A stretch of 54,191 nucleotides of DNA, the filler included, from Sluysia triapertura (lineage: Eukaryota): NCBI GenBank assembly GCA_046118255.1. It is 4 parts of 4 records of this genome, joined end to end, with 100 filler letters (N's around TTAATTAATTAA, not from the genome) between each part and the next. Parts side by side here need not be neighbours in the genome. Positions count along the whole stretch, not along the records: positions 1 to 12,600 come from JBJNIA010095776.1; positions 12,701 to 27,552 come from JBJNIA010247204.1; 2 more parts are not named here. One strand, given 5' to 3'. Below, piece by piece: positions 1 to 52,500 of this stretch. The notes under the pieces are model-generated. The model was not told the DNA's origin. It ran no database searches and worked only from the letters and a program-made list of their open reading frames with translations. How positions within the stretch are numbered: the stretch's first letter is position 1; the number at the start of each line of letters is the position of its first letter. Both the position numbers and the translations under genes were made by a program.

Positions 1-63
1 CAGGTGGTCAAGTACTTCTATACTACATATTACTTCTATACTATATAATACTATATATTATAT

Positions 64-153
64 CAGTGGTGTCAAAGGGGCGGCCCATGGGCCGCTTGCG
101 GCCCGCGGAGGCAAATCATGCGCCCCGTAAAGCAAAAAGGTTTGACACCACTG
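64..153. mobile_element. 90-bp hAT-type (Charlie/Buster-like) MITE
   Basis: Perfect 13-bp TIRs CAGTGGTGTCAAA (64-76) / TTTGACACCACTG (141-153). GC-rich interior with GGCCC/GGGCC/GCGGCCC subterminal motifs typical of Charlie-group hATs. No intact 8-bp TSD (tattatat vs ttataacg). Confidence 0.8.
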
Positions 154-1479
154 TTATAACGCAAATCATGAAAAACGTTTTGAAAACCGTAATAGTAATA
201 ATACAATCTGATAAAAATAAAATTTTCAACACTTGATATAATTAAAAAAATATTAAAATAAAAAATATTACTAATAGTTAACATTAATTGAAAATCAATT
301 TTAAAAAAAGAGGTAATAAATTTAATTAATATTTTATTAACGTAGAAAATTAATTTAAAAAAACATAATTAAAAATATTTAAAATTAAACTAACACAAAA
401 ACATTTATTCATACTTTATCTAAAATTTTGTAAAAATATTCTTATAATAATAAAACGAATATAATAATAATTATGTTATTAAGACATTAAAGATTATATT
501 TTAAAATTTATTCGTGATTTTTAAAATCAGAATAAAAAACATTCTTCGTTCTAGTCTTTGAAGTTAATTAAACTTCAATTTATTGAATTTAATTTCATAT
601 AAATGTGATAAATGTTTAATCAACAAAATTTATTAATTTAAATAAATAATTAAACAAGAATTTTAAAGTTTAGATCAGTCACAATTTAAATCAAAATTAA
701 TTAATAAATAAAGCTAAATTTTGTTTGTATTTTTTTATAAAATTTTAACTGAAAACGAAAATAATCGTTAATTTTAATTAATACTGTGTTTTATTTGAAA
801 TTATGTTATAATTAAATATATAATTAAAGAAGATTAATTATAAATAAAATTATTATTTATCATTATAACGAATAATTTGATAACGAATAAATAGGACAAA
901 ATATGGACATGTATTTTTTGCAATGAATTGTCACTTTAAATTTAAAATAAATTAAATATAAAAAATTTACCAAATGTGATAAATAAAATTTATTTTCCAT
1001 TTTGAATTAATTATAATTTTTAAATTAAATATATTTGACGTATAAAACAATTTTTACTTCATTTTATCAGTTAAAATAAATTTTATTTATTTTTCGTTAT
1101 CTATTTAAATGTAAAAATGTAAAAAAATTTAATCTTCAACGAATTTTTGAAATATTTTTATATAAAATAATTTGGTGCATATCAGATGTATGCAGCTTAA
1201 TAAATTAATAAAAAAGACAATACATTGTTTTTGTCAGCAATATTAAATCATAATTTAAATAATAATAATAATGATAATAATAATAATAACGCAATAATGT
1301 TTAATTAATTTAACATTAACTAATTACTTAATAAAAACACATAGTTTCGGACTTGTTATTTATGGACCTTTTTAAATATTATAAATGATTTATGAAATTG
1401 ATAAATTAAAGAAATTATAAAACAAAAAGTATTACTTTTTATATGAAATAATACTATTGAAAAAATATTTCTAATTCGG

Positions 1480-3807
1480 TAAGTTAAATAAAATGAAGGA
1501 ATGTATTATTTCGTTTATGTCGAAGTATTTAGAGTTAATGGGTTTATGATTATTTTTGTTAAGATTTTATTATTAATTAAATGATTCGAATAAAAATATG
1601 TTAAACTTTGTTAACTCATTATTAAAAGAATTTGTTAAAATTAATTTGAAATCTTCATAATTAATATTTAATATTTAATAATTAATAATTAATATTCATA
1701 TTTACTAAATTAATCCAATGAAGACAGAAAATTTTATTACTAAGTATATGAAATAGAATTTTAACAAAAAATATCAAAAATTTTAAGTTAGTTCTTATTT
1801 CCTATATATTTCCATACGGTGCAGGTTGGTTTGTTTGTGGACTCCTTAAAAATAAATGATAGAGATAAAATTTATGTTCATGAAAAAACAAAATTATAAT
1901 TACTTGCAGTCTTAATTTATTAACTCTATAATAGTCACTGTAAACGAATTTGGTAATTGTTAACTTTTGATTTGTTATCAAAACGGCTGGATTGTAAGGA
2001 TGTTAATAAACTGCTTAATCTTTGCATGTGTTCATTTGTATCTTTGTCATTGTAATACATTTCGAAGACATCGTGGTAATGGCGGCAGGATATGCCATAT
2101 TTGTTACAGATTCCAATTTTATTTAATTGAGATGGGCCTTATGTCAAACGGTAAAACTTGGGTTGAAAATAAAAGGATTACCATGATGTCTTTTGTGATA
2201 GTTTAACTTGATTGGTATATTATATCGATATTTGGCTTTAATATTCTTATTTATATCTTTTGAATATAGAATGTATCTTGCAGAAAAATTTTCTTTAAAA
2301 ACAAATGTAGACAAAACATCTTTTGGAAATATAATCAATTATAAGTTTAAATATCTCGATCTCTTGATATAAATGTTGTATTTCATTATCAACGTTGAAT
2401 TTAATCATTGAAATAAATTGATTAATTTATAATTCAGTTTTGTATAAAGTTAAAGCATAATTAACTAATTGTTGTAAATGATATTTGCCCATCATAAACC
2501 GTTCAACTACTTTAGAATTTTCATCAAAATTATAAAATTCGTTTAATTTTTCTGTACTGAATTTGATTGACACTTTAAACATTTTTAACATCAATTACAT
2601 TTATTGATAAAAACTACAAGGTTGATATTTCTACACGTTTTCTAAAACAGCTAAATTACAAATTTCTATTATATCTTTTAGCGTTTCAAATTTTCGACTA
2701 TTAATGCGTATTGTAAGTGTCTAAGCAGTAATTATAAATTATAATGAATCTTGTGTGAATACACTTTTTTATTGAGTCTTAAATTTTTTCCCTGTCTATA
2801 TTTTAACTTTTCTAATTGCGCTGGCTTTGTACCTTTCAAATTTAGTCATAAATAATGACACTGTAAAATTAATCGTGATTGGGCGTCCAATAAAATAAGA
2901 AATGTTAACATACAAAAATAGCATTGATAGTGTCATCGTTTATTTCAAATGAGTGTCAAAAAATGGTATGACCATAAAATTATATTGACGCACTAAGCAA
3001 CCGTTATCAATCGACAGTTAACAAGATTGGCTGAGTTGATTTTAACTAAACTGTCGACCGGTGATAGACTATGTAATGAAAAATAGTGTAATAAAAATGA
3101 AAAAAAATAATAATTAATATATAAATGACAAAAAAGAATAATAATAATTAATAATAATAGTGAAAATAAATAAAATAATAATAACAATATATGTGTAAAA
3201 GAAATACATAAACTTATATTCTTTTCTTTACTTTATTTTTTAAAAATTATTTACATAAAAATGTTAAATTTCTTTTCTTTAAAATAAAATTTTATAAATA
3301 AAATTCTGTTAGCTTAAATTCTTTTAAATAAAATTCTTTTTGATTCTTTTCGTTCTTGGTTATGAAAATACTTCATTTCTTTCTTTAAATGCTTTTTGCA
3401 ATATTAGTTCAAATCATATTTTCTTTGAAAGAGACTTTATTCGGTGATTACAGATTTATGAAATGTGGAAAGAGCTGATAAGAGATGTTTAAAGATAATA
3501 ATACATAACTAAAGGTGTTAAAGAAATGCCATTTTGATTTCTATGTTTAAAATGGTTTTAAAATGTGAATTTAATGTTTTTCAGTGATGAATTGTAAACT
3601 TGAAATTTTTTGGATTAATTTTAAAATGTACATTTGATAATATGAGATTTAAATTGTGATTTTAATGTTGTGAAGTTGCGAATTAAAATGATTAAAAGTA
3701 CTTAAAATTTTATTGAGTCTGAAAAGGTAATTTGTAAAATGTTAGGAAATGTGATATTTCGTGTATGATAATGATTAGAATTTTAAATGAAAAGGTTGGT
3801 CACCACA
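1480..3807 (-). mobile_element. Composite dispersed element, copy 1 (TGTGG-terminated family; cargo ORF type A, decayed)
   Basis: Colinear similarity to 14480-16783 over about 2.3 kb, e.g. ccatacggtgcaggttggtttgtttgtggactcc vs ccataggttgctggttggtttgtttgtggagtcc, and tttaacttgattggtatattatatcgatatt in both. Terminus GGTTGGTCACCACA ends at 3807. Left boundary approximate. Confidence 0.8.
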
Positions 3808-3849
3808 AAGTAAATGTTTAAAAAGTTTATGTTTAGAATGAAATAATAG

Positions 3850-3903
<54 letters not shown>

Positions 3904-4909
3904 TAAGTTTTTAAATTATTATCTTATTTCATATTTAATTTACCATTTAAGTATGAAGTAACCCATAAGTAAGGTTATCTTTATCTATTGCAAATTTTAA
4001 AATTGAAACTTAAGAAATATTCTAAATAGTCATTCATATTAAAGGTAGTATTTGTAAGCTTCACTTGTGTATCATTGTTGGAGAAATGGAAGGTACAACG
4101 ACGTTGTAAAGATTTACATATAAAAGAAAATAAATAGCACGTTTAGAAGTTACAAGGACTTTCTCATCGAGTGAATTTGAAATTTGGAACTGCTAGAAAA
4201 GACTAATCCCTGTCGGAAAGAAATATTATTTGATTTGAATAAAAATTCAAGAAAGAAAAGATGACACATTTTCAATTATTTGATAAAATTGTTTAAAGGA
4301 TGGTTAATCGTGGCTAATAGTAGTGATTAATAACATAGAAAGTGAAAACATTAAACATTTCATGATAATTACTCTAAGTTAATCTATCAAAACTTATCTA
4401 ATTTATCTATTTTGTGTCGAAGATATTATGATTGCTTGTTATCCCACATTAGTGAGCAAGATAAAGATAAACATGAAACAGCAAAAATTATTTGATAATC
4501 TCGATATTTGATATGAAGTAAGTGAAGTAGTTGAAATCTTGTTCTTTCAGACAACTACTCATTTCATTTTTTAATATTATGACCTTCAATTTCGATGAAA
4601 AGATGTATTATCATTGGATTATATTTTGAATATTAAATGTACAGTTTAAGGGAAAACAGTAAACTACTTTATAATATATTATATTTTACTTGGACATTTC
4701 GAGTTTATTTTTAATTATTAAAAATAATTAATAATGTCTTTTCTGATAATATTTAGAAATTAAGAAGAAAAAGAAAAAATTGTTGAATTATATAAATAAC
4801 TTTAAAAGTGACTGATAAATTTTGTTTTATTTACCATTTCAAAGATTACACTTTTATTGATTTTTTAAATGTTCGATTTAAATAATTTCGATTTAAATTC
4901 AGAAGTAAT

Positions 4910-5055
4910 AGTAAGCTGGGCGACAAGTTATATACTATATACCGTTTATGTTTCAAAAACACACAAAAAACTACCAGGAAAAGTCAAATTAATGGAACAT
5001 TATGAAATATTTAAGAAGAAAAAGTTATTTCTGTTTCCAAAATATCGTAGTGAAT
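4910..5055 (+). repeat. Dispersed repeat, copy A (partner at 12423-12562)
   Basis: aagctgggcgacaagtt...accgtttatgtttcaaaaa...attatgaaatatttaagaa...aaaagttatttctgtttc aligns with 12423-12562. Confidence 0.8.
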
Positions 5056-5534
5056 AATTTATTTTAAACACTGTTGAGTATTTAATAATAAATTAAAAAG
5101 AATTAATTTTTAATTTCTAATTGAAATTAATAATAAAAAAACAGATTTTTAATAAAATAAAGGAATAAATTTTTTAATATTTATATGCAAGTATGAGTAT
5201 ACAAACAACAAAAATAAAGATTATACTTTATAAAAATAGAAATTAATTTATATTATAATTAAATTTTGATATAAAATTATATCACGAAAACAAGAAAATC
5301 CCAGCGAACTTCTAATCATTATCAACGATGCAATAAATGATTGTTAAGTGTCATATAACAATCAGAAGGATAAGAATAAAGTAAAAATAGAGTAAAATCA
5401 AAGTAGACATAATATAGAATCCAATATTTGATAACGAATATCTGTAGACGACATCAATTATGTAAATTTCTTACCTTTTTCTTGCTTTATTTTGATTACT
5501 GACTATTGCTTAGACATTTGCAATTTCTTGTACA

Positions 5535-5580
<46 letters not shown>

Positions 5581-7799
5581 TTAATAATAGCGCTTATGTC
5601 TACTATGAAATAAGTGTAAACTGTTTAGAATATGATTAGTAAAACGTTGCATTCTTAAATATATCATAAACCTCCTGTTATTTGTCATTCTATGGTAGCA
5701 CGGTGTCGATTTTTCAAACTAATCTCTATATAACCTATTATCAGAGTATATTTTGAATTAATTGTTATATCTTAAAGATATTCATTTTGGTTTCCTAGTC
5801 TGCAATATTTATCCACAAGGTCAGTATTGTAAGAAGAAAGTCTAGTGAAAAAGGCTTTTTAATTTGTACTTATTCTTTATTGTGAGTTCTTTACAATCTT
5901 AGACTTATGCACTTAAGGGCTAAGTTGTAAGCAGTATTTTAGAAGAACTTATATGAAGGTAAGCTTATATTAAGCTTATATGAAGTCAATTATGCTTTCC
6001 TAGGTTACTGTAAAACTATAAAACTAATGTTGACTCTTTAATTTAAAAGTTAAAAATCGGCTCTTTAAAATGAACAATTTTATGAAATATTAACTTAGGC
6101 TTAAAAATAAACTTAGTTCTTTCAACAAACTTGGTTTTTTTTGTAAGGTTATTTATAATATCAAAATTCAAAATAATTTAAGTCAATTTTACAACCTCAT
6201 TAAAAAAACGGTGTTCCTTAAATCTTATCTTTTCTCTATGAAATTTTACCTAGATTTTGCGACCGAATAAAATCGGTGACCTTATTTTAATTAATGAATA
6301 AAATCGAATAAGAAATGAAATATATTAGTTGTACAATTATACAAATAATAATTTTTATACAGAGGATAATAAAAAGTATATAATAACTTTATAAATATTT
6401 TAATGAAGATTATAAATATAATCTTTTATTAATTAATTACCTCCCTCTTAAAAAGGGGGTTAAAAATTAAACTTATCATTTTGCTATCCATTAAAAATGA
6501 GAAAAACTTATAAACAACAAACTAACGGTTACTATGATGATTTATAGATAAGTTTCCAAAAATCAAGTATTGTCCAAAATTCCAAAGGTTTAAATTAATC
6601 GTCGAATGAAGTTTCAAAAGTTTCTTGAAGATCGTCACCGAATGAAATAAATAAGAATTCAGACTTTTCTCGTGATACCAACCTTGTGAATAATTTTTGT
6701 GTGAGTGTATTATGAGTTTTTATGTGCCTTTTATAATAGATGAATGGTAACCTTGACTGTTGTAGTTCAATTTATTTAATTTAATTTATTTAAAGAATTA
6801 AGATAAAGAATTAAGACTTTAAAGATTAAAGAGAAAGAATTTAAATAATATTAATAATGATTTTCATAAATAATAATAATAAAAATAATAATACCAACAA
6901 ACTGTTAAAATTAAAATCAATAATTTTATTTAAACTATTACGATAAAAATTTTATTTATATTGTTAGATTCTATATTTAAAATCAATAATTTATATTTAT
7001 AGACATAACCTAATCAATAATTTACAAACATAAACTATTAAACTTTAGTTAGATTCTACATAAACTATTTTTAGATTATAAACAGATTATAAATATAAAC
7101 TTTACATATTATTATTACTGACATATTGACAGTATCATAAGCATTTATAGATTACCATCATATGTTTGCTTTTACTTAGTAACAACAGTCAGATTTATGT
7201 AATATCCAAATTTTAATTAAAAACATTCTTATAAACTTTAGATTATTTTGTGTAATTTGAAATTAAATAAATACTTTTAAACGTTTAAACAGGGTTATTA
7301 TTGAATTAATATAAAACATAAGAAATGATAACGTATTTTGACTTTAAAAATCAATAAAATGTATAAAAAGAAATTCATTGTCGATGCTTGTTGCGCAATA
7401 TATACAAATCAACATAGTAAAGTTAACTTAAACAAAAATTTGTACAACTTTTTAACTAAAATCATAACGTTTTATTTATTTCTGGATAGTTTTTTTACAT
7501 TTTTGTACATGTCTATTGAATAAATATAAAAATATAATTTTTGTTTTACTAAACTTTCATTTAAAATTTAAACAAATATAAATTTTTATTAATTAAATTA
7601 TAAATTATTTTCAATAAAGATTTTCATATAACTTTTTACTAAAAGAAACTTAATAAAATAAAATTAGTTATAAAAACTATAAATAAAATATTAAAAATTT
7701 GTTTTACGAATGACAGAAGATAAAATTAAAAATATCAGTAAAAATACAGATGTTTAAGATGTACAAATAATTATAATAAAGCTTAATCACAGCAGTTTA

Positions 7800-10675
7800 T
7801 TTTACAGATTCAGATTAATGCCATTGGATTTTCTAATGAAATTTGGATCAAATTGTTGTGGTTTAAAGTTATTAGAAAGCTTGAATTTAAAAATTAATTT
7901 TATACAGAAATTTAATTCACAATTATAAAAAGAGTTTACAAATTTGATCGAAATCTTAATTTTTAAAGTTTTAAAAATATAACTAATAAGAACTAAGTGA
8001 AAATTATACAAAAATCTATTCACAACAATATTAATTATTTTCGTCCCGTAGAAGTCGTCCAATTTTAAGCACGCTTCACCATCTAAACATAAAGAAATAA
8101 AACTTGATTACTTCGCGTTCGTTGTAAATAGCACTCATATCGATTGTTGTTTTGACTTCCTCAGCTAGTTCTGATATTTTAATTTTATTTTTTTCAATAT
8201 GTGATATAATAATTTGACTAAATGTAACAGGAATAACTTTTCTTCACTTTATGATTTACGCAATTTCACATTTCTTAATATAAAATTCGAAAAATCTACT
8301 ACTTTAACTCGATAAACAATAGTTCTATTTCTTTGTTCGCCAAGAATGGCTTCGTTGATTGTGTCAAAAACCAATAATTTTAAATCGATGATGGATGGAT
8401 TCACATTTGAATATATGTTGGCTAGAAGTTGTGCAACTAAACTGGTTACATCTGCGGATTATCGAGTTTACAGCGTAAATAATTTCGAAGACTATGAAAT
8501 TGTTTTACACACATTCTAGATAACAACTGAAGTACTAATTTAACTTGTTACCGTGGATCGGTTTTACAAGGCATGCTGACTCTATGATATTTTCTTGTTT
8601 GGCATCATTTTTTGGATTTCCATTTTTAACATTATCTTTTAATCGATCCGTTTGATTATTTTTAACGACAATGGCTTTCAATTCATAATTTTCTTCATTA
8701 ACATAATTTTGATCAACATGATTGAATCTATTCTCTTTTCTGGAGCATTTTTCACTTCATACGTCCTTCGAGATGGATAACAACACGAATAACAATCATC
8801 CTTTGCTGGACTAGATTTATATGTAAGTACATGTAGCAGCCTTTTCGTTACAAAAATTTCATTATTGGCAAATCTTAATTTTTGATCTTTCAAATAACCA
8901 ATTGCATCTTAAAGTTGATGTGTATTGGCATCGAAAAGAAATTCTTCTTTTGAGTCCAAGAAGAATTGCAACATATCAGATCGTAGTGCAGAATTTGCAT
9001 TAATTAACATAGCTGACTCTAACACAGCAACTTCCTTTCTGACCGAATCAATGGAATTAATCATATGTATTTGAGAACGATTTGAATATTTCTTGTACTG
9101 CATTATCTATTATACGATTTTCCCGATCTGTCGTCAATTGCACTTCTTAATAGCATATTATCGACTAATTTGTAAACATCGCAAATCAAGATCATTCTGA
9201 TCTTGCTTATTAATTGTTTTTAAAGTTTTTCTACTTCTCGAACTTAGATCAGATTCTTCGACATCTTTATATCGTTTGATATCATTTCTAACATAATTTA
9301 AATTCACAAATGTTGTTATATGATCGTGAAGGTCTTTACTTAACGGTGAAGCAATGGGCTCAACTTTGTTGATATACTTTTTATCAATTTTAATGTTGAA
9401 TCGATGTTTTGCAATGTTTAATCCCATATCATTTTGATTTACAAATAATTGTTTTGTAAAATCTTTTACTAATTGCTAATTTTTTGTTGATTATTTGAGA
9501 TTATCATTATTGTTTTATAATATTTGTTTTTTGTGCCAAAAAATTATTTTGTGTTTCTGCTTCTGGATTGGTTGTCCAACCAAAGATATATGAAAATAAT
9601 GATGAAGTTCACTATGGTTGGACAGCTAGTAATAATCATTGCTCATAAATTGATTGATAGGTGAACCACTATCAGTGGTGACACTGACTGTAAATGTAAG
9701 TAAATGCACTCACCACTGGTAGTGGTAGTTACTAAATTAATCGAAAAAATAAATTAGTTTGAATAAAATTTATGAAAATGATAATAATAATAACAATTAA
9801 TTACATAATTTTCTTAAATTCTTTACGACATAAATTTTCTTATACTCTGTTGTCTATTCTCAACATATTTAGTTGTATTTAGAGAAGTTGAATATATTTA
9901 AACGTCTGAGGGTTAAGTGCTATAATTTTAAAATGATACAAATGTTTTACGTGGATTTTAAATGTACACTGATGGTCTGCATGAAGTAATGTTTTAATTA
10001 TTTTAAAATAACATGAGTGTTTAGAATGAAATTAATGTTTAGCTGTTATGATTGTGACATGAAACTGCGTTGAAAAGAGTGTAGTTTGGTGTATGAAAAG
10101 TAGATAAGTTATAGTCTAGCTTTTAGTATGTTCGAAAGGTGATCATACAATGTTAAAAATATAATTTATTTTCTTGATATGTTTAAGTAATATTATCTTT
10201 CTGTGCTATTAGGGATTGACTGATAACAGATCATGAATTTAGAATGTTTGAATTAATTTGAAAGTGGTTGTAGTTGAATTATTATGACATGACGAATAAA
10301 ATATTTTTTTCATGAATTTTTTTAATGTAAATTGATGGTTTTGAATGTCATTATGGTTCGTATGTTATGAGATTGTAGTTTTACAATGTTTCGAAGAATG
10401 GGAGTTGATTTTGGTGGATCTAGAAAGAAATAAGACGAATTCTGAAAGGTTGTTTTGTGGTGTTGAAAAGGATGTGATTTTAGTTATTTTTGTATTGAAT
10501 TGTGAATTTAAAAATGTGAGTTGTAGATTTTGAGGGTGAGTGTTATATTGACAAGGGATTATGTAAAAAAAAATTTTTTTAATGAATTTTAAAGTGTATA
10601 TTGTATATTTTAAAGATGTATGTGGTTTTATAATGTTTAATGAAATTTGTTAAAATTAATGGGTTGGTTACCACA
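7800..10675 (-). mobile_element. Composite dispersed element, copy 3 (same architecture, different cargo ORF type B)
   Basis: Terminus GGTTGGTTACCACA ends at 10675. G/T-rich tract 9830-10660 resembles 3420-3800, 16450-16780 and 22600-23400. Hairpin at 9665-9726, GATTGGTTGTCCAACCA at about 9566-9582, then a long broken ORF. Left boundary approximate. Confidence 0.65.
7802..9427 (-). pseudogene. Decayed ~500-codon ORF of unknown function (element cargo B)
   Basis: Chain of same-strand ORF fragments (9158-9427, 8909-9103, 8678-8893, further open stretches to about 7800) in locally higher-GC, coding-like sequence, interrupted by stops and frameshifts. No family recognised. Confidence 0.55.
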
Positions 10676-10799
10676 CAAATTTTTAAAAATGACAACTTAG
10701 ACCACATCAAACTGAAAGACTTTGGGTCTTTCACTGTCCATTCTATCTCTCCTGTTTACGTCAAAGTACAAAATAAGATTAAAGTACATTACGTTAAGG

Positions 10800-10830
<31 letters not shown>

Positions 10831-11353
10831 CTATAAAGCTTTGATTTTTAAAATAATTTAAAAAGTATTAATGAGTACTTTATAAAAAAATAAGTCCTTT
10901 AAAAAAGATTTTAAATATTTGTTATGAATTGATGAATCAAATTTTTTATTTTGGCTTCTATTTTCGATAATGATTTCTTATACCTATCACATAAGCTTCA
11001 ATTTATTAAAATTATAAATGTTCACATAGGCTTCCTGCATGCTTTAATAGGTGCAATAAACTAAACTCAAACTAATATAATTTATTTCGTCGGCTATATA
11101 ATTTATCCGCTAACTTGAATAATAAAATATTTTAAGTATCGAATTGACATTTGTTTGTGAATTTCCTAAATTAACCCAGCGCCTAGCCCTAACTGGTAAG
11201 CCTAATACGTTGGTGGACTCACTACAAACATTTTCTTTTTATTAATAAGACTAAGTCAAGAAAAAACCTAGCAATTATTATCAACAAACCTCATTGAACT
11301 TTGATATATAATGAGTTTACCATACTTAAGTTGACTTCTATGATTTTTTATAG

Positions 11354-11399
<46 letters not shown>

Positions 11400-12422
11400 A
11401 TTCCAGAAATCCTGCGGAAAACTCGCTAATTTAAATTATTAGATTAAATTATTGTAGATTAAGCATATTTAAACAAAAATTGCATTATTTATAAGTTAAA
11501 CTTATATGTACATCTTAATAAAATTCGAAATTATACACGTTTGACAAAATATGACTGTAATTTAATAACTTTAAAGTTAATCTTTTCAGATACATAGAAA
11601 AATAAACTGCTTTTTGTTGTATATTTGCTATCCTTAAAATATCCTTGTTTTTTTATAAAATGTAATACGACATATTTGTAACATAATATAATATTTGTAA
11701 TATAATTTTATAAAGATGTAAAGGCTGTAATGTTTATGTTATAAATTTATATCTGTAAATCTTAAAACAATGTTGTATGACATTAAAAATATATCAAATT
11801 ACACAATTAAAATACTATTATAAATAAATTATAAAAAAATTAAAAATTTCAAAATTAATTTAACAAATGAAATTTAAATTTCATAATTTTGTCACGATTT
11901 TTCTTATTACAAAAATCCTTTTTATAATTTATTATTATAATAATTTAATAAGTACTTCCATCAATCATTAAAATATAATTCATTTAATCTCAATCAAACA
12001 AATTATAATTAAAAATTAATTTTTATATTGTTAAAAAAATTAAAAGTTGAATAATTTGATAACTTTATATCATACATGAGTAAATCAGTCAGAAAACTTT
12101 AAGATATATTAACTATTTAAATCAGATTCATACTTTTCAGCAATAATAAATTTTTTAACATGTTAACATAACATTCTTATTTATTTTGTGATAAATAATA
12201 TTCAATCAGTTAAAACAAATACAATCCACATTCAGAAATAACATACAAACAATTAAAATATATAATTCATAATGCTTATATTACAGAAATACTGAGTATT
12301 TCTTCGAAGTAATAAAAATTTGGAAACCAAGATGATTGTTCCATTGATAAAGTATAGTAAAGTATAATAAAAGTATAATATAAAGTATAATAAATTATAG
12401 TATACAGATTCTACAGTGGGAA

Positions 12423-12562
12423 CAAGCTAGGTGATAAGTTGTAAACCGTTTACGTTTCAAAAATGTTAAACCAGTTACCAGATAATGTCATATTAGTGGA
12501 AGATTATGAAATATTTAAGAAAGACAAAAAGTTATTTCTGTTTCAGAAATATAATAGTGAGC
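12423..12562 (+). repeat. Dispersed repeat, copy B (partner at 4910-5055); probable DNA-transposon end
   Basis: aagctaggtgataagtt...accgtttacgtttcaaaaa...attatgaaatatttaagaa...aaaagttatttctgtttc. Preceded by TA-CAGTGGG, a Tc1/pogo-like terminus. Confidence 0.75.
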
Positions 12563-12600
12563 ACTTTTAAGTACTTATTTTACAGTATATATGAGCGCAG

Positions 12601-12700
12601 NNNNNNNNNNNNNNNNNNNNNNNNNNNNNNNNNNNNNNNNNNNNTTAATTAATTAANNNNNNNNNNNNNNNNNNNNNNNNNNNNNNNNNNNNNNNNNNNN
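12601..12700. other. Artificial contig linker (N44-TTAATTAATTAA-N44)
   Basis: Identical 100-bp construct occurs three times. TTAATTAATTAA places stops in all six frames. Confidence 0.97.
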
Positions 12701-14479
12701 ATTATTACTATGTTAAACTTATCTTTATTATTTTGAACAAAGATTTTATTTCTCAATTATTTTAAAGATATTATACAATTTATAAGGTTACTAAAGGATC
12801 TCAAATGCCTATCGACATTTCAAGAATACCTAAAGGTTACTAAGGTCTTCAATAATCTAAAGTTCTAAAGTTCAATAATCTAAAAGGTATCTTAATGCTT
12901 GCAAAGGTTTTTCAAGTCCATCTCAAGCTTCCACAAGATCTCAAACCTTATATAGGTCTTTGGAACTCAAAGGTATTCTTTAATTGTTAGGACCATTATA
13001 AATGTTTTCATTATCATGATTCTTATTTCAACAATGTTTATAATGTTCAGTCCATCAATTTGTATAAGTTCTTCTTTGATTTTATAGTTCTATAAGTATC
13101 TTACTCATTTCCTAATCTACAGTTGGGCAATCCCAACAATTGTGTAATTATAATATTTATATTGTACTGAATATAATGAAGTATGAATTTTGTTTTGATT
13201 GATAAAATTTGGAATTTAAGTCTAATATAGAATAAATTTTATTATTTAAAAAAGGTTTACGACTATTAAAGAGTCAACATTATTTATTGTGAATTGTTGT
13301 GTTGTCGGAAAATAAATTGACTGAAAAGATATTGCAGTTTTTTAGAGATCAATATTTTATAAAGTTTTACAAAACATTTATAAGTACATGAATTAATTAA
13401 TTTAATTATAATTATTTGAAAATCATCTTTAATCAATAATTTTCCTTATGATGTTTGCATAGGAGCGGGTATCGCACATAATAAAACACAATCAAGACTA
13501 TGTGAAACATATCAACGTAGATAACGTAAAATCATTATATTTAATTAATTTTCTTCATTATAAAGTTAAATTTCTACGTATTATAATAAGCATACATAAT
13601 AAAAGTATATATCAAATTAATACTCAATAAGAAATCATTCTAAATATGTCATTGACATTAATGTCACTCATCATTAATGTGTTGTTTATTGTATCAAAAG
13701 TTATTATTGAAAACAAGTTTTATAGTTGATTAGATTTATATCAAATTTAAGGTAATGTATTGTATTGATAATTATTATTATTATTATTATGATCTTAAAT
13801 ATTAATTTTATTATGTTCAAAATATAGAAGTTTGTTTGCCATAAAACTCATTATCTTTGGATATTTGCTAGACACTATTAAGACGAAAACTCGACGGAAA
13901 TTTATGTTCAAATTTGATTAATAAAATTGGTCGGCATAAAAATAACTCTAATAAATAAGCATGTCTTGTCGACCTGCACAATAATTAAGTCAAATTCCCG
14001 ACTTTTTAGCAATTATCCAAACACTATGCAAAGAACCACATTTTTCTATTATTAGACACAAAACAGAATAAAAGAAAATTATTATAACTTTTGCTGTAAG
14101 AAGGCTGATTCAATACAGTAGTGGCAAACACTGATTGAATCTTTCAATTCTTTAGAAATCGGACTATATTTGTTAAAAAGCCAATTTATTTATAGTTAGT
14201 TGAATTTTGAGTTTTTATTGTTTATTTATTGTATTCTGGGTAGTAAAATTTATTTGTTTTGTGTAAAATCTAAGATTGAGTATTATAGTTGATTTTTATT
14301 TAGTGAATAATTGAAAAGACTGAGTTATAATGAGGTTATCATTATTTGATTTTTATTGTGATATATTGTGATATATTTTGATATAATTATAATATATTGA
14401 GATTGAGATTCATTTATTGTTTTTTATAATTTAAAGAATATTAAAAAAATAAAAATACCACAAAATTATAAACGTTTTT

Positions 14480-16783
14480 CGTTAAATAGGAACGAAACAA
14501 GAAAAACATATGTCAAATATATGAAAAAATAATATGTATCTTTGAAGTTATTCTTTTTGAAATTATTTTTGTTAAATTAATGGTAAATGTTTGATAAAAT
14601 TTAATGTGAATTAAATTATAAAAATTTGCTGTTTTATTACAAAATGAATTTATTAAATTCAATTTGAAAACTTTACAATTATCTTTATTATTTACAAAAT
14701 TAATCAAATGAAGACATAAAATTTTATTGCTAAATATATATTCAATCTAATTTTTACAACAAAAATTTAAAGTAATTTCTTATTCCGTCTATATTTCCAT
14801 AGGTTGCTGGTTGGTTTGTTTGTGGAGTCCTAAAAAATAAATGATAGAGGTAAAACATATGTTCATGAAAAAACAAAATTATAATTACTTTCAGTCTTAG
14901 TTTATCAATAATAGTCATTATCTTCATACTGGAAACGAATTTTGAAACCACTGAACTTCGATTTGTTGTCAAGATGACTGGACTGTAACGATGTCAGTAA
15001 ACTGTCTAATCTTTGTACGTGTTCGTCTGCATCTCCTTCATTGCAATTCATTTCGAAGACATTGTCGTAATAGCGGCAGGATATACCGAATTTGATACAT
15101 GTTCCAATTGCATCTAATTGAAATGGGCATTGTGCCATACGTTTATGCATAATAACGCTACAACTTTGATTGAAAATAAAAGGATTATCATGATGTCTTT
15201 TGTAATTATTTAACTTGATTGGTATATTATATCGATATTGAGCTTTAATATTCTTAATTATGTGTCTTTTGAATATAGAATATATCTTGTAGATAAATTT
15301 TCTTTAAATATAAATGTAGACAAAATAAAACGACATCTTTTGGAAATATAATCAATCATAAGTTTAAATATCACGATCTCTTGGTATAAATGTTGTATTT
15401 TAATATCAAAGTTGAATTTAATCATTAAGATAAATGGACTATACATATAATCATTTATGTTTTTACCATAATTAAATTGTTGTAAATGACATTTATCCAT
15501 CAGAAACCGCTCAACTACTTTAGGTTTTTCATCAGAATCATAAAATTCGTTTATTTCTTTTTTATTCAATTTCGTTGACTCTTTAGATAAATTTTCATTT
15601 TGTTTAACAGAATGATTAAATAAAATCATATTTACACTTTCATTGGAAGATGAATCGTAATCACTTTCATTATAATCAAGATTTAAAACTTTAAACAACA
15701 ATTTTTTATCATTCTCAATAATATCAAAATTAACGATTGTCATTTTATTCAGCAATTTTATCAATAACAACTTTATATTTCCTTTTAGTGTTTCAAAATT
15801 TTCGACTATTAATGTATATTGTGAGTGCCTAAATAATAATCATAAATTATACTGAATTTTGTGCGTATCTATTTTTAACTTTTTTGTTTGACCTTTAATT
15901 ATGATGCCTTTTAATTCGCTAGCTTTGTGAGTAAAAATTTGCTAATAATTATGATGAAATTGATTGGATATCCAATCAAAATAAGAATTACTATAGGTAT
16001 AATAATAAAATAGATTAACACACTAAGTAACTGTCATCAGTCGACGTTAACAAGACGGCCTGAATTGATTTTAATTACACTGTCGACTGACGACAGGCCA
16101 TATAATGAAAAATGGTAATTAAGTGTTAATTATAATAATGATAGTAACAAAAATGATAATAATAATAATTATATAATGATAATAATAATGATAATAGAAA
16201 ATGGTTTTAATAATAATAATTTGTAATAAAATAGTAATAATAATAATAATAGTAATAATAATAATAATAAGTATATAAATAGCGAAAATAAGTAATAAAA
16301 TAATAATAAAATTATATAAAAACCCAAATTTCTTTATATATAATGCCTTTTCTTTTCTTTAAAATTAAATTATATGGATACAATTCTTTTTCTTTCTTTA
16401 AATGCTTTTTAAAATATTTATTCTGATTCTTACTGACTTTCTTAAAAGTATTTGTGTAATCCAAACTAAAATTGTTAAAGAATTTACATTTTGATTATGT
16501 TTTAAAGTAATTTTGAAATGTGATTTTAATGTTTTCAGATGGTATTTAAGATTGAGTATTGAAGGATTGTGAACTTGAAATGTTTTGGATTAAGTAAAAT
16601 TTGTACCTTTGGTGATTTTCGATGTTGAATACGATTTTAACGTTATGAACTTTTAAATTTAAAATGTTTGAAAGTATTAACAGTTTTGATGAATTCTAAA
16701 AAATGAATTATTAAATATTCTGAGGAGTGGTTTATATATGTTGTGTTAATTTACAATCTTAAGATATTAGGTTTGCATCCACA
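14480..16783 (-). mobile_element. Composite dispersed element, copy 2 (cargo ORF type A, best preserved)
   Basis: Homologous to 1480-3807. Contains broken ORFs 15258-15770, 14905-15150 and 14754-14972, a CCAAT palindrome (15960-15979), a hairpin (16031-16096) and terminus GGTTTGCATCCACA ending at 16783. Confidence 0.8.
14754..15770 (-). pseudogene. Frameshifted ~330-codon ORF of unknown function (element cargo A)
   Basis: Three consecutive - strand ORF pieces join through frameshifts: ...FKENLSTRYILYSKD / KNIKAQYRYNIPIKLNNYKRHHDNPFIFN / MHKRMAQCPFQLDAIGTCIKFGISCRYYDNVFEMNC... The paralogous peptide FKENFSARYILYSKDINKNIKAKYRYNIPIKLNYHKRHHGNPFIFN is at 2144-2338. No family recognised. Confidence 0.65.
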
Positions 16784-16802
16784 GTATAAACTTTACGACA
16801 TT

Positions 16803-16862
16803 AAGTATATCTGAAATAAAGTATATCTGAAATAAAGTATATCTGAAATAAAGTATATCTGA
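16803..16862 (+). repeat. 16-bp minisatellite (AAGTATATCTGAAATA) x ~3.7
   Basis: Directly visible exact tandem units with 16-bp period. Confidence 0.95.
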
Positions 16863-16959
16863 CATTAATATCTGAAATAAAGATTTTATTTCTAATATTA
16901 AACTATTGTTCAGATTTTATCTAAAAACTTATCTGACAATTATGAAAAACTACGTTAAA

Positions 16960-17046
16960 ACGGGTCCGCCTACAATCTAATTTTTATATCTCACGGAAGA
17001 CTTAGTTATAGGATTAGTATATGTCAGTACTACGAAAGAATCCTTA
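16960..17046 (+). repeat. ~87-bp dispersed repeat / probable transposon TIR (inverted partner at 42463-42550)
   Basis: acgggtccgcctacaatctaatttttatatctcacggaagacttagttatagga...atatgtcagtacta matches the reverse complement of 42463-42550. Confidence 0.85.
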
Positions 17047-17261
17047 CTATCTAATAATGGAGGGTCTTTATGTGTATAACTTTAATTGCACTTTTTAAAG
17101 TCAATTTATACTACAAACGTTTTTATCCTTGAATTCAACTTCTTGACAATTAAATTAACTCAGGAATCAAAAACAAAATATGTAATACGTAACGTATTCT
17201 ACGAATTTTTATTGAATCAAACTATGATTATTCACAATAAATAATTTTACAAACAAGATTA

Positions 17262-17660
17262 TTACAAACAAAAATATTCAACAATATAATAATAATTTAA
17301 TTTATTAGCTTTAGGATTGCTCCTAAACAAATTAAAACATAATTTTAAAATGATTTTAACCCAGGTGAATACTTGAGTGTGGAGAATTAATTTAATTTTA
17401 CGTTGATTTAATACAGTGAATCTCTGTATAAATCCTAACATAAATAGCTTACGGTTAATATTTGTAAAGAGATCTGTTAGTTCCAATTTTTCTATTAACT
17501 CTACTGTTTCCAATTTATAATGATGACCCAATTTGAAATCCTCACGTATCAATTCCAGATAAAGAGGTCTTCGAATACCAAGTTGATTAATAAATAATTC
17601 TTCTTGAAACAATTTCAATTCCAACAGATTATGAATTTCGAATACCAAACTCTTTCGCAA
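17262..17660 (-). CDS. 132-codon ORF of unknown function, possibly transposon or virus derived
   Basis: Unusually long open frame for this base composition, but non-ATG start and no recognised motif. Confidence 0.2.
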   Translation of the reverse strand: MRKSLVFEIHNLLELKLFQEELFINQLGIRRPLYLELIREDFKLGHHYKLETVELIEKLELTDLFTNINRKLFMLGFIQRFTVLNQRKIKLILHTQVFTWVKIILKLCFNLFRSNPKANKLNYYYIVEYFCL

Positions 17661-20088
17661 AAGATTTTTAAAAATTTTAATTTTTTTTAACTATATTCTA
17701 GACTAAAACCGTTAGCTATTTATATGTGTAGAATTTTTACTAAGTGTAATATGATAAAAAGATAATTAAATTAAAAGATTTCAAAATAGTTATTTTCGTA
17801 TTACTTTAAAAGATAATAATTATACAAAATAATAGATAATAATTATTTCAATTATTTACTTAAATAATTTCGACTTTGGATTTAAAATTATTTTATCTTT
17901 ACTTTTTATAAGTTATTCAATTAATTATACAAAAGTACTTTTAATATAATTTTAATAATTAATATAAATTTTAATAATATTAATAACTACCTACAATTTT
18001 TACATTTAATTATTATCTACAAAAACAATATAAAAGAAAATGTTGAAGACGATGATTAGGATTTTCTTTTATTGAACCATTTCTTAAAATACGATTAAAA
18101 ATACCGAATTTGCCATATAATCTGAGTAGAACAATACTTGACGAAAGGATTGCGTAAACAACACCAATGCAACCATCCATATCTAAGCAAGGAAGAGGTA
18201 TATGTACGAGAAAGGAAAATAAAAAATATACCAGCTTCGTTTGTAATATTATTTGTAATAACTGTAAAAAAATTTTCTAATTTTCATAAAATGTCTAATT
18301 CTTATAATGTATCAAATATCATTGCATGCCTTTATTAAATTTATAAAATAAAATTCATTTATTGGATGAAATTACACCCATAATACTGTTAAGGGTTAAA
18401 AATGTTTGTTATCACAACTGAAAATAAAATATGCAAGTAGTATTAAACTTTATACAGTCAAAAACCAATTTTATTATGATTCTAAATACATTTTTCAAAC
18501 TTACCTTTAAGTTTTATATGTAACATAACGATATTTTTAAAAAATTTAAGTTTATTTATTATTAAATAAAAAGTTGAATTTCATTATTCATTGAAGTTGT
18601 TATTCATTATTTAAAAGTACAATAATAGTTAATGGAACATACAAAACCCATTAGGCGCGAAAAGGATAAACTTAGACATACAAACATTAAAATTTGTCTT
18701 ACTGTATAAATGCTTTTGATTTAAGATTAATATTTTGATAATTATTTAAAATAAAACTTGGATTTAATGTATATTTTAGTTTTTAAATTATTTCGTTCGA
18801 TTTGATATTATCAGGTACTTGTTTTTTAATTAAAAGTACCATCGTATTTTCATTTATATCCATGTTAAACCCTACTAAAGTACATAATTAGGCTTTTAAC
18901 TATAAAAAAAATGTTTGGTAGCTTTACTCAGCTGTATGAACTTATATAATACCTCAAAATAAATCCTACTTTCATTAATGTCTTTAAAAAAGGCTTCAAG
19001 ATCTATAACAGATTGAAGCAATAGCATTGGTCAAAAAAGTTTAATCGTTTTAAACTAGAATTAGAACAATTTTAACAATGCTCATAAAATGTAAGACTAA
19101 AACTACGTTTTCTAAACATTTATTATTAAATCTGTAGAGGATATAATGTGTCATTAATGTATTATAACAGATTTTCGAATAATCTCGAATCAAAAAATGA
19201 CTTATAAAATTATTCCTCGAATTCTTTCAAGAAATTAACACAACAGAAACTTTAATATATCAATACCTTTATCTTATCGTAGTCACAATTTAATACCATA
19301 GAAAATGTTTGAATATTAATTTTTTTGTAGAAAATGGGAACATAAAAAATATCCAAATGTTTATATTTTATTTAAAAAATCTGAAAATGCTTAAAAGAAT
19401 TTTTAAATGAATAATGTCTTAAATAAGTTTTGTTATTAAAATTTACTTTTATTAATTTGCAATTAAGATTGATTGCTAAAAGTGAAATAATAACAATACT
19501 AAAAAAATAAAAAATATGAAGGACAGTTATGATAGAGAATTAATGAATTGAAGAAATTTCATTTAGTTTATTGTTATTTTTAAATTTTAAATACAAATTT
19601 AATGATCTTTGATGTCATGAGTGCTTTAGGTGTTGTAAAAGTATGATTTTTCGTATAGTGTGATATATTAAAACTTTGTGTAAAGAAGTTGACCAACACA
19701 CCATGAATAAATCCTTTAAAGCTATTCTATGGTATAAAACTGTTTGCAGGTAAATGAATTTACATCTTTAGAATAAAAAAAGAAAACAGATTCTCTGTAG
19801 CGATTTGTACAGATATTTAATGTCAAATAACTGGGAAATGTCAAAAGTAATCATTGGCATTTTAACCCATTAAGCTGTTCTAGAGTTAAAAATGGTAATA
19901 ATTAATAAAATCAAGAGCATTATTATCCTACTTATGTGCAATATTCTTAAAGTATACATTTTTAACTAAAATTAAATACCAAAAGAAAATTTATTTATCG
20001 CGTAAATGAAAATGTTTATTTGAAAATCAGAAAATTTTATATTTTACTTAATACTGTACTTTATTTAGGGAAAATTCACAATAATATT

Positions 20089-27070: not shown

Positions 27071-27071
27071 T

Positions 27072-27200
27072 TGTGGTGGTTCAACCATTTATCACAATTA
27101 TATCATATCATCGACACCACATACATACACACAAATTTCATCTTAAATACATACCATAACATGTCTCGTGAACACCAAATATTAACCTTAAAATTGTAAA
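27072..27200 (+). mobile_element. Truncated TGTGG-family element end (opposite orientation)
   Basis: TGTGGTGGTTCAACCATTT...accacatacat resembles the reverse complement of the 10675 terminus (TGTGGTAACCAACCCATT...accacatacat). It cuts the 33-bp repeat exactly at TGTGG. Confidence 0.55.
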
Positions 27201-27477
27201 AAAATTGTAGAAAATGTAAGTAACATTAGTAAACTTTAATTTGTAATGCATTGAATTTATAAAATTTTAAAAATAAATCTAATCTATTCTTTTCACCCAT
27301 TACCACTGTAAGATTTCAACTTTCGTAAACAACAGAATTACCATTATCGTCATTGTTACACAACCATTAGTTATACAACGATTTCAGAGGTTATCGAGAC
27401 TCGATTATTAGTTTATTTTATTATAATTATTATCATTATCATTATTATTTTATTAGTATTATTGTTAGACTTCGTAA

Positions 27478-27549: not shown

Positions 27550-27552
27550 CGT

Positions 27553-37720: not shown

Positions 37721-37799
37721 GATAAAAAATCAAAAGTTCATTATCTACAATGTATTATCTTCTTTTGCATTCATAATAAAAAACAAAAATTCTTGTAAT

Positions 37800-51400: not shown

Positions 51401-52500
51401 TGTGGAATTTTGATATCAGTCTGTAAGACATATTTTCCTGTCCTAGTTGTATTTAGATCTTTACACATTTTATTTTCTGTTATTGAGAAGTAATTGAACT
51501 AATTTCTCAAAATTTTCAACACATCAACATAACACTACCTTTACAATCACATTAGATCCAGACAACTTAAATTTCCATAATTTAAAATCGTTATATAACT
51601 TAAAATCTTTACAATTAAAAAATTCAAATTTAGCAATAAATGAAATTTCTATAAAAAACACTTTCAACTTTTCTGAATTCTCTCTACTATAATTATTTTT
51701 CTTATTCTCTCTTTTTCGTGTTAACTAATTACAAAAATAATCCTTGTTACAATTATACCAATTTATATAACCAAAAAAATTATGGTTATAATCGTTACAT
51801 CAGTGCACCTGCAGTTACTAATGCATCTTTTCAAATTCAAGTTCAAGTTATATAATATTCAATAAAAACCTATTCAATCAATAGGTGAATGTACATGTTG
51901 ATCAAACAATTGTTCTGAAAACTGAACCTATTGATTATGCAACATGTGAGAATACTAACAGTATCTAGGATTGTCACAGCCAGGCCTAGAATGGAAAATA
52001 AAAATGGATGAGCATCAGTTTCCAAAAGAATTCGTGTTTCAGACAAAATCGGAAGCGAAAACTAAGCATGTTAAATCAAAAAATGAGTTTATCATTCACT
52101 CGAACTTCCAAAAGCAAATTAATTAATTTCAAATTTATCATCGAAACAGAAAAATGAATTTAAGAAAATTAAGGCTGCATTTGAAGCGCGTGTTCGTGAA
52201 AAGTATAAATCGCACTTCCTTCAAAAATCTAAACTGGATAATCTGATTATAGAACATCGAGAAAGAACGATCAAGAAAGATCAAATGAATACAAATTTAG
52301 GAAATCATTGAAAATAATTTACTAAATAATAAGTTATAATTGGTAATTAAAGGACTTGAAGAATAAGTACAAAACAATCAAATTTTAATCGATAATTTAA
52401 GCAAAATTAAACCAGAAATTGATCGTAGAATGATAATGTTGCAAGAAAATTTAGAAATAAAAGAAGAATCAAATTTTACTAATAAACTCACTTCAAAATT
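51401..52500 (+). mobile_element. Possible diverged TGTGG-family composite element (cargo ORF type C)
   Basis: TGTGG at 51401. A/C-rich tract with cataatttaaaatcgttatataacttaaaatc, similar to the reverse complement of 16615-16650. Hairpin at 51876-51936, then a broken ORF from about 52005 (MDEHQFPKEFVFQTKSEAK...EFKKIKAAFEARVREKYK). Confidence 0.35.

Follow-up and report, generated by a model that had tools for sequence, protein, structure and literature searches.

The window analysed here is a 54,191-nt stretch of the Sluysia triapertura assembly GCA_046118255.1, made of four parts joined with 100 filler letters between them (positions 1 to 12,600 are JBJNIA010095776.1 and positions 12,701 to 27,552 are JBJNIA010247204.1). 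It contains 2-3 kb repeats of two or more families, which share a sharp TGTGG end; each family carries its own broken orphan gene. Copies 1 to 3 lie in the same orientation and share a common order of parts, as an earlier reading made from the sequence alone (the sequence-only reading) had stated.

Ends of the form TGTGG-N4/5-MAACC occur four times in the window against 0.04 expected: at 3807 (-, TGTGGTGACCAACC, 3794..3807, copy 1), 10675 (-, TGTGGTAACCAACC, 10662..10675, copy 2), 16783 (-, TGTGGATGCAAACC, 16770..16783, copy 3) and 27072 (+, copy 4). The pattern was derived post hoc from the ends already proposed, and none of 100 shuffles attained four. In a leave-self-out scan the same ends were the top sites, with scores of 12.7-17.8 compared with at most 9.9 for the 144 other sites kept. 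This bears out both the TGTGG terminus of the sequence-only reading and its fourth example at 27072. The end is also discrete, as had been claimed from the unlike flanks: the 30 nt beyond TGTGG show no kinship in any of the six pairs of copies 1-4 (p 0.21-0.74). The base preceding TGTGG varies (T, G, C and T in copies 1-4), so there is no fixed target. Copies 1 and 4 fit the 5' signal of CsRN1 Gypsy elements, given as TGTGGYG in Table 3 of PMC3601003. All four copies fit TGTNR, which PMC2836005 describes for Ginger and Gypsy termini, and the far end of copy 2 reads TGTTG.

Copies 1 (1518..3807, -) and 3 (14511..16783, -), each about 2.3 kb, form family A. They are homologous from TGTGG to the far end (67.8% over 2432 columns), with an identity that is uneven, from 0.50-0.80 in the tract to 0.77-0.98 in the 3' part of the gene. 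Their far ends are uncertain: similarity of copy 1 to copy 3 is firm to about 1600 and fades to about 1516, and copy 3 ends somewhere within 14474-14640. At the end of the BLAST match both read ...GACA, where the flanks agree at 2/5 and 3/5 positions, with no convincing duplication. Behind the terminus, copy 1 has a C-rich, G-poor tract (3250..3793, -), a TTA-rich spacer (3089..3206, -), a decayed homologue of the copy 3 hairpin (3004..3062, -; z -1.6, 19/200 shuffles) and an ATTGG-N4-CCAAT palindrome (2878..2891). The corresponding parts of copy 3 are a C-rich tract (16330..16769, -), a TTA-rich spacer (16127..16321, -), a 66-nt hairpin (16031..16096, -; z -3.8, 0/200 shuffles) and the palindrome ATTGGATATCCAAT (15963..15976). 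The pairing of copies 1 and 3 as the two LTRs of a single element was considered and rejected, as the intervening DNA is single-copy in run X1, the public run described below.

The family A gene is of coding origin. In copy 1 (1788..2850, -) it is interrupted by several frame breaks and stops, includes a C-x9-C-x6-C-x3-H motif and has a tentative 112-nt 5' intron (2721-2832). In copy 3 (14767..15900, -) open stretches of 193 codons (15258-15839) and 132 codons (14905-15303) are accompanied by frame breaks near 15260-15300 and 14900, and the last exon is short. A 59-nt GT-AG intron candidate occupies the same place in both copies (1845..1903, -, and 14830..14888, -; 55/59 nt identical) and is followed by an in-frame exon. 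Since it is conserved more than the exons, it may be something else. The dN/dS ratios (1.42, 0.51 and 0.47 on 99, 105 and 52 codons) indicate no clear purifying selection.

Copy 2 (7854..10675, -) represents family B. It is 2822 bp long, runs from TGTGG to CACAACA and is flanked on the + strand by CAAAT (7849-7853 and 10676-10680). It includes a C-rich tract (9870..10661, -), a 64-nt hairpin (9664..9727, -; z -3.4, 2/200 shuffles) and a second 64-nt hairpin, overlooked in the sequence-only reading (9567..9630, -), one arm of which contains a TTGG-N4-CCAA palindrome (9567-9579). Its broken gene (7900..9475, -) has about 500 codons in stop-poor stretches with shifting frames and is unrelated to that of family A.

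The grouping of the genes thus differs from the one first proposed, in which copies 1 and 2 had a common ORF and copy 3 an unrelated one. It is copies 1 and 3 that share theirs (z 74.9); copy 2 differs (z -0.6 compared with copy 1 and -0.2 with copy 3). The 62-67 nt hairpins exceed chance in copies 2 and 3, and that of copy 1 does so less clearly. The inverted CCAAT pair was correctly located, with ATTGG-N4-CCAA at three loci, one in each of copies 1-3 (0.26 expected), except that in copy 2 one half is CCAAC. A cis cassette with a sequence conserved between copy 2 and copies 1 and 3 is not borne out: the hairpin-CCAAT regions give z 1.5 and 0.9 and the tracts z 3.1 and 1.6, with two collinear matches (E 0.14 and 0.39). 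What copy 2 has in common with copies 1 and 3 is the 14-nt end, the palindrome, the hairpin geometry and at most trace tract similarity. These features fit two old related families equally well as an exchange of cargo behind one conserved cassette.

Copy 4 (27072..27452, +) consists of the terminus, a tract of about 330 nt and a TTA-rich tail, with no gene before a tRNA-like insert and the gap. TTAGTATT is present at both of its sides (chance about 7%). The weak fifth candidate (51401..52500, +) includes TGTGG, a skewed tract and a possible ORF remnant. Its hairpin of about 58 nt, near 51890-51947, is real (z -4.1), but the end match is poor, the supposed third ORF is no longer than chance and comparison with the other copies gave no sequence link.

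Both genes are multicopy. The evidence is from contigs of one public run (run X1), in which variant letters occur in 11-33 contigs at six listed places of the copy 1 gene and in 14-37 contigs at five listed places of the copy 2 gene, the latter also being matched by two diverged paralogous pieces of 300-350 nt. Unique-contig depth is 27-86x for the copy 1 gene and 28-58x (three bins) for the copy 2 gene, compared with 448x and 824-999x for the tracts and 3.6-5.4x for three flanking bins. The terminal tracts are therefore about 10-30x deeper than the genes, although copy number cannot be read from summed contig depth, and depths of 12-33x also occur in AT-rich bins beyond the units. The host animal genome is itself AT-rich. 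In copy 1 only the outer 300 nt or so of the tract are very deep (2700-3700 at 3515-3679 compared with 308-347 at 3413-3484). In copy 2 the tract is very deep and background begins directly beyond 10675; the far end is not deep, unlike that of a typical two-ended MITE family. The DNA between the copies is single-copy. Among the 12 listed of 3366 rows in the loose-end table of run X1 there is none at 10675, so that sequence common to other copies past TGTGG is neither shown nor excluded by them. Run X2 (organism B) was excluded: its depth on the same repeats is 0.1-0.5% of that in X1. Since this depth is tiny and the longest record is identical in both runs, carry-over between them is possible. 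Linkage of end, hairpin and gene is known from this window alone.

Multiple copies and a discrete TG end agree with the earlier description of non-autonomous gene-carrying elements. We do not favour the other option raised there, the end of a large virus-like element, since copy 2 seems to be a closed unit of 2.8 kb and single-copy DNA separates the copies. The sequence-only reading had also found no target site duplication. This is superseded by a candidate in copy 2, where the far end CACAACA fits YNYAACA, a general LTR 3' signal, at 7/7 positions and the 5 bp beyond it repeat the opposite flank exactly. The junction was identified post hoc, with a chance per 1.5-kb stretch of 0.0097 for YNYAACA, 0.046 for YNACA and 0.21 for CA alone, and can alternatively be read as a 7-of-8 duplication. 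The matching far end and 5-bp duplication support the suggestion that the TG end is typical of substrates of retroviral-type integrases. In copies 1, 3, 4 and 5 the search for a CA accompanied by a 5- or 6-bp duplication was negative. Eight-bp candidates exist in three of the four copies (7/8, 7/8 and 8/8), those of copies 3 and 4 being weak (p 0.15 and 0.07), and copy 1 has none. Comparison of the two ends revealed no TIR similarity past the first 5-6 bp, and 12 tests for a second LTR at the far ends were negative (top z 2.3).

The cargo genes have no homologue in Pfam above cut-off, PHROGs, NCBIfam, word-seeded searches, the ESM Atlas or viral contigs. Specifically, Pfam found no transposase or integrase domain, and the cargo searches gave no match to gag, pol or env. 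The best Pfam match is a weak zf-CCCH_UNK (E 0.0066; 16.8 bits compared with a cut-off of 31.1). The copy 3 frame with the 193-codon stretch found no homologue among 1.84 billion representatives. AlphaFold models built from single sequences were too poor to use (pLDDT 40.3 and 45.5); a Foldseek search with the first gave 0 matches at E 0.001. PDB searches with two frames of the copy 2 tract returned only noise.

The tracts had been described as LINE-derived, an origin that the searches do not support. A CR1/L2 profile of 51 ORF2 pieces gives no signal in copies 1-5 (z at most 2.6, compared with 7.8-16.2 for an L2 control), and the same search detects a real L2 remnant in the window at E 9e-8. 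For the other LINE clades (L1/Tx1, RTE, I, Jockey and R2), Pfam scans of the tract frames gave nothing above cut-off. No Penelope protein was found in the tracts by plain or frameshift-aware searches, in which 15/15 controls scored, with a profile of 25 Penelope/Poseidon-type ORFs that does not extend to Naiad, Neptune and other clades. Nor do the units include pLTR repeats or a hammerhead motif, the latter also being absent from Naiads according to PMC8557442. Penelope and CR1 readings of the tracts and of 22400-23450, made by eye, failed the profile tests; the latter stretch scored z 3.7 under one of four settings and 1.8 when this was repeated.

The repeats fit no transposon group tested. 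Our preferred reading, to which we give a probability of roughly 0.38, is that these are old TG...CA elements which are non-autonomous and were mobilised, probably as DNA, by a retroviral-type (LTR/Ginger-like) integrase acting in trans. The conserved 14 nt would be the recognition site of the integrase, since only the terminal 15 bp or so, the span that an integrase reads, are conserved between the families. The integrase of another element would join the TG...CA ends to the target at cuts staggered by 5 bp, to judge from copy 2. The hairpin and palindrome would serve the cargo gene as its promoter or leader, and the retained 59-nt sense intron candidate points to a DNA or unspliced intermediate. 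Short gene-less relatives (for example, copy 4) may outnumber gene carriers, which would explain the excess depth of the tracts. Copies 1-3 are situated upstream of a calaxin exon and antisense to it, and their location, likely within a calaxin intron, would explain their common orientation. Against this trans-integrase reading, a TG...CA end with a 5-bp duplication is seen in only one of the three gene-bearing copies, and neither the integrase nor a partner element was found.

The main rival, which we consider unlikely, is that these are remains of Gypsy/BEL LTR elements, either giant solo LTRs that enclose an accessory gene, or a 5' LTR made up of the tract and TTA-rich part, followed by leader hairpins and the first of the internal genes. 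The att-like ends of copy 2 and its 5-bp duplication would be expected, solo LTRs would yield the excess of tracts, and section 7 of PMC6431247 records both accessory ORFs and LTRs of 1.9-6.5 kb. The TTA-rich part of copies 1 and 3 ends in CATTACA/CATTATA, followed by TAG/TGG at the hairpin start, which resembles an LTR end and primer site. However, no far end has a second LTR, gag, pol and env matches are absent, the sense intron candidate is retained and very high depth is limited to the outer 300 nt or so of the copy 1 tract. The single-copy DNA between copies is a further difficulty, although it does not exclude solo LTRs.

Copying of the units in trans by a Penelope-like or other non-LTR reverse transcriptase is distinctly improbable. 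Such copying would fix the 3' end at CCACA, leave the far ends ragged, produce 8-bp duplications and preserve introns, and both ragged far ends and 8-bp candidates are indeed observed. PMC3846280 describes a Penelope that moved an intron-containing gene in Adineta, with an 8-bp TSD and palindromic pLTRs. Against this, each 8-bp candidate is weak, Penelope protein, pLTR and hammerhead signals are missing as above, and depth changes in steps with no taper. More improbable still is that copies 1 and 3 belong to a rapidly evolving family of host genes that have a CCAAT promoter and multiplied through segmental duplication, an abundant short repeat lying upstream. The introns, the absence of a transposon domain and the presence of two paralogues 13 kb apart, a clustering that random insertion would hardly give, are in its favour, but the copy 1/3 similarity begins exactly at TGTGG, the unrelated copy 2 gene has the same layout, both copies are broken and their dN/dS ratios are as given above. 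The original model of a single family, in which a LINE-derived tract and conserved cis cassette swap cargo ORFs, is the least probable: the same part order with two, perhaps three, unrelated ORFs, the trace tract similarity and the uneven copy 1/3 identity, which suggests recombination, favour it, but the tracts have no CR1/L2 signal and the A and B hairpin and CCAAT regions do not align.

Among known systems, the Gypsy LTRs of the CsRN1 and Sushi clades, as described in PMC3601003, resemble the units in their TG...CA ends (with the TGTGGYG start in copies 1 and 4 and the YNYAACA end and candidate 5-bp duplication in copy 2) and in conservation of only the terminal 15 bp or so. The units differ in having no paired LTR or gag-pol and in enclosing a gene of 1.1-1.6 kb, which in family A has a candidate intron. 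Ginger1 and Ginger2/TDD, from the account in PMC2836005, share the TGTNR ends, a 2.6-7 kb size range, introns and, in TDD-4/5, a 5-bp TSD; their 40-270 bp TIRs and integrase-like transposase are absent from the units, where the Ginger1 target CCGG/CCGT is not seen either. The Penelope-mobilised host genes of Adineta vaga (PMC3846280) are alike in the intron-containing passenger gene, promoter-near palindrome and possible 8-bp TSD, but the units have no flanking pLTR pair, hammerhead or Penelope-derived sequence. With Polinton/Maverick, as outlined in PMC8097293, the likeness would be the retroviral-type integrase; the AGT/AG/AC-repeat ends, long TIRs, 6-bp TSD and intronless genes given there are not encountered here. 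Zisupton/Dileera/Kyakuja (PMC12730594) have 7-8-bp TSDs, the 8-bp reading being weak here. Kyakuja, as presented in that source, has no TIRs and carries extra genes, as the units do, but its ends are CA...TG and its KDZ transposase is absent from the units.

Helitrons have TC...CTRR ends, and the end here is TG. The bases before TGTGG do not correspond to insertion between AT or TT, which PMC10288648 gives for Helitrons together with the lack of a TSD. A literature search, which did not extend to subscription journals and supplements, found no non-autonomous transposable elements with TGTGG/CCACA termini; a Repbase-type supplement entry could therefore hold the family.

More broadly, the units might exemplify an undescribed class of animal 'gene cassettes', a proposal that we regard as doubtful: 2-3-kb DNA units with no boundaries other than minimal integrase signals (TG...CA, 5-bp TSD), without an LTR pair or TIRs, mobilised in trans by a retroviral-type integrase. 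Each family would carry an orphan gene of its own, containing introns and preceded by a promoter with hairpin and palindrome, and short derivatives that have no gene would be about ten times as numerous. Should the ends be sufficient by themselves, integrases of the retroviral type would be able to move passenger genes with introns in the absence of LTRs and TIRs. Orphan multigene families in animals could then arise by a route like that of Pack-MULEs, and the units would be living intermediates between the LTR elements of the Gypsy type and the Ginger DNA transposons, a transition termed unclear in PMC2836005. If the units are instead LTR remains, the result would be more modest: an unannotated retrotransposon lineage with unusual accessory genes. 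Elsewhere in the window a Polinton-like polymerase remnant was observed by eye.

The gene-carrying units fall into two families. Copy 1 (1518..3807, minus strand) and copy 3 (14511..16783, minus) can be aligned from TGTGG to about 1516 and 14509, respectively (67.8% over 2432 columns). Compared with dinucleotide shuffles, their ORFs (z 74.9), hairpin regions (z 19.3) and tracts (z 14.1) all match, whereas copy 2 (7854..10675, minus) against copies 1 and 3 gives -0.6 and -0.2 for the ORF, 1.5 and 0.9 for the hairpin region and 3.1 and 1.6 for the tract. We therefore place copies 1 and 3 in family A and copy 2 in family B. The sequence-only reading had given copies 1 and 2 the same ORF; it is copies 1 and 3 that have one in common. 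The families share a 14-nt end and a layout (TGTGG terminus, C-rich tract, TTA-rich spacer, hairpin, TTGG-N4-CCAA palindrome, broken gene) with almost no alignable sequence, and two weak collinear matches of an A-tract profile to the B tract (E 0.14 and 0.39) hint at a remote common origin. The group proposed earlier is real, multicopy, gene-carrying and unclassified, although Dfam or Repbase, which lay outside the comparison, may already have an unclassified entry for it; it is less modular than was proposed and its ends are better defined.

The four TGTGG termini, the palindromes and the hairpins are all present and all above chance. Only three GC-containing stems of 14 bp with loops of 10-60 nt turned up across the whole window, all in copies 2 and 3 (loops of 36-38 nt); the decayed hairpin of copy 1 did not qualify. 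C-over-G skew of at least 0.44 in the next 300 nt occurs at 7 of 45 TGTGG sites; windows with a skew of at least 0.4 make up 3.4%. Five of the seven are copies 1 to 5, including copy 4 (27072..27452, plus) and candidate copy 5 (51401..52500, plus); of the other two, one lies 31 nt outside copy 2 and one, at 14462, is new. As had been noticed, the flanks beyond TGTGG are unrelated among copies 1-4, and a 33/66-bp tandem array (26748-27071) stops at the TGTGG of copy 4. Directly behind the TTA tail of copy 4, beside an assembly gap, is a tRNA match (27478-27549, minus; Rfam E 1e-8), possibly a SINE head. The site at 14462 lies directly behind the far end of copy 3 and starts a C-rich tract of about 300 nt (14462-14110, minus) with a hairpin of about 35 nt (z -2.2) and no similarity to other tracts. 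It may be a sixth element in head-to-tail arrangement with copy 3.

Copy 3 contains two stretches without stops, of 193 and 132 codons (maximum in 300 shuffles, 120). In copy 1 the same two frames have one stop each (99 and 105 aligned codons) and the other minus-strand frames 5-15; family A is therefore of coding origin. A 59-nt GT-AG segment, a candidate intron followed by a short in-frame exon, occupies the matching place in both copies (55/59 identical). Copy 1 has a C-x9-C-x6-C-x3-H motif, whose final histidine is missing from copy 3; the only Pfam match is a sub-threshold CCCH. Stops are scarce in the B region (114 versus 140 +/- 8), and the longest stop-free run there has p 0.007 within the region and p 0.06 across the whole unit. 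No homologue of either gene was found in Pfam, PHROGs, NCBIfam, ESM Atlas or word-seeded searches, nor of the copy 3 frame with the 193-codon stretch among 1.84 billion representatives.

Genome-wide evidence comes from Logan contigs aligned to 1000-12600 only, using public sequencing run X1, from which the assembly may derive; a second run, X2, was excluded from counts. Depths are summed and given as multiples of unique contigs (depth 10-13); they do not equal copy numbers, and AT-rich bins elsewhere reach 12-33x. The copy 1 gene lies at 27-86x and the copy 2 gene at 28-58x (three bins), the tracts at 448x (copy 1) and 824-999x (copy 2). Since variant letters inside these genes are carried by 11-37 separate contigs, and two diverged pieces of 300-350 nt match the B gene, both genes are multicopy; the tracts have far more relatives. 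Depth falls to 5.4x in the bin starting at 10675, which marks the end of copy 2 only and is no proof that other copies end there.

In twelve tests neither the TGTGG end nor the hairpin region recurred at any far end, in direct or inverted orientation, so the units have no paired LTRs, no paired pLTRs and no TIRs. No target duplication had been found before. Copy 2, however, fits a reading in which TGTGG...CACAACA (7854-10675) sits between two copies of CAAAT, a candidate 5-bp duplication. Its far end fits YNYAACA, the general integrase signal of LTRs, and the TGTGGTG of copies 1 and 4 fits the CsRN1 signal TGTGGYG (PMC3601003, Table 3). The chance of a YNYAACA end with its own 5-mer is 1.0% per 1.5-kb stretch (4.6% for a looser signal, 21% for CA alone). 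Alternatively, the junction is a 7/8 duplication around TGTGG...CCACA, the sole case in 97 facing pairs (0.25 expected); the two readings are one observation. Where the BLAST match of copies 1 and 3 stops there is GACA, with flanks matching at just 2/5 and 3/5. Copies 3 and 4 have weak candidates for an 8-bp duplication (p 0.15 and 0.07, respectively), and copy 1 has none.

No transposase of their own was found in the units. In our main reading (probability roughly 0.38), a retroviral-type integrase supplied by another element would read the terminal 15 bp or so, the span that PMC3601003 gives, and insert the unit at a cut staggered by 5 bp. The intermediate would be DNA or unspliced, as for intron-bearing Ginger elements (PMC2836005), since the sense intron is retained. 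The hairpin and palindrome may act as promoter or leader, and short gene-less relatives would account for the tract excess. We suggest only tentatively that these are undescribed animal gene cassettes with minimal integrase signals, neither LTR pair nor TIR, and an integrase in trans. The units would behave like a Ginger substrate but lack the TIRs of 40-270 bp that Ginger elements have. Polintons differ in end type and do not fit the introns (PMC8097293), and Kyakuja ends are CA...TG (PMC12730594). Text searches, with subscription journals and supplements outside their scope, found no paper on transposons with TGTGG termini.

The units may instead be LTR remnants, a somewhat unlikely origin: LTR elements resemble them as substrates, but the units have no LTR pair or gag-pol. 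As such remnants use the same enzyme, insertion by an integrase, by whatever route, is moderately favoured. Trans-mobilisation of the Penelope type has precedent (PMC3846280) and is less likely still, the units having neither pLTR nor hammerhead. Profiles were built from long ORFs of motif-scanned loci (25 Penelope-type, 51 CR1/L2-type; other clades and untranslated regions fall outside their coverage), and plain and frameshift-aware alignment gave no signal of either type in any of the five tracts (copies 1-5; z no higher than 2.6). By comparison, 15/15 held-out Penelope loci scored and a decayed L2 at 24060-23710 reached z 7.8-16.2. A host gene family is improbable; dN/dS over three stretches of the family A gene (1.42, 0.51 and 0.47) shows no clear selection, and copies 1 and 3 are both broken. 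Least credible is the original model of a LINE-derived tract with exchanged cargo, given tracts devoid of CR1/L2 signal.

The window has a G+C content of about 22%, with plentiful TAA microsatellites and transposon remains. Calaxin together with Tc1, hAT-like and L2 remains makes an animal the most likely source. The calaxin (EFCAB1) exon lies at 20531-20638 (plus; PDB match E 2e-10); as a motif scan found no further calaxin exons upstream, copies 1-3 probably lie inside a long calaxin intron. The 100-nt gaps (12601-12700, 27553-27652 and 42191-42290, each with a TTAATTAATTAA linker at its middle) are artificial joins, which leaves the order of the parts on either side uncertain; copies 2 and 3 are separated by one, and another lies just past copy 4.

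Two more C-rich tracts (19700-19300 and 39975-39610, both minus) are possible short gene-less relatives: one begins TGTGTTGGTCAAC (score 9.3, equal to background), the other begins GAGGTGAAACCAA and ends (ATT)17. A 1-kb C-rich tract at 22440-23450 (minus) has no TGTGG end, LINE/Penelope signal or relation to copies 1-5. A C-terminal piece of a decayed L2 LINE ORF2 lies at 24075-23710 (minus; CR1/L2 profile E 9e-8, best tblastn E 2e-12). The decayed coding stretch at 36640-37740 (plus) resembles, by eye and in its motifs, a Polinton protein-primed DNA polymerase, a candidate label for which Pfam, PHROGs and NCBIfam gave no match and viral contigs one weak match. Other remnants are a Tc1/Tc3 transposase (44105-44437, plus; HTH_Tnp_Tc3_2_like, E 2.7e-7) and a piggyBac-like element (47934-49065) recognised by eye from TTAA-CC ends and an acidic N-terminal frame, with no Pfam match. 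MITEs at 64-153 and 49554-49889, with terminal inverted repeats starting CAG, are presumably hAT-like. A short repeat at 4927-5060 and 12431-12567 reaches a summed X1 depth of up to 819,000, compared with about 11 for unique DNA.
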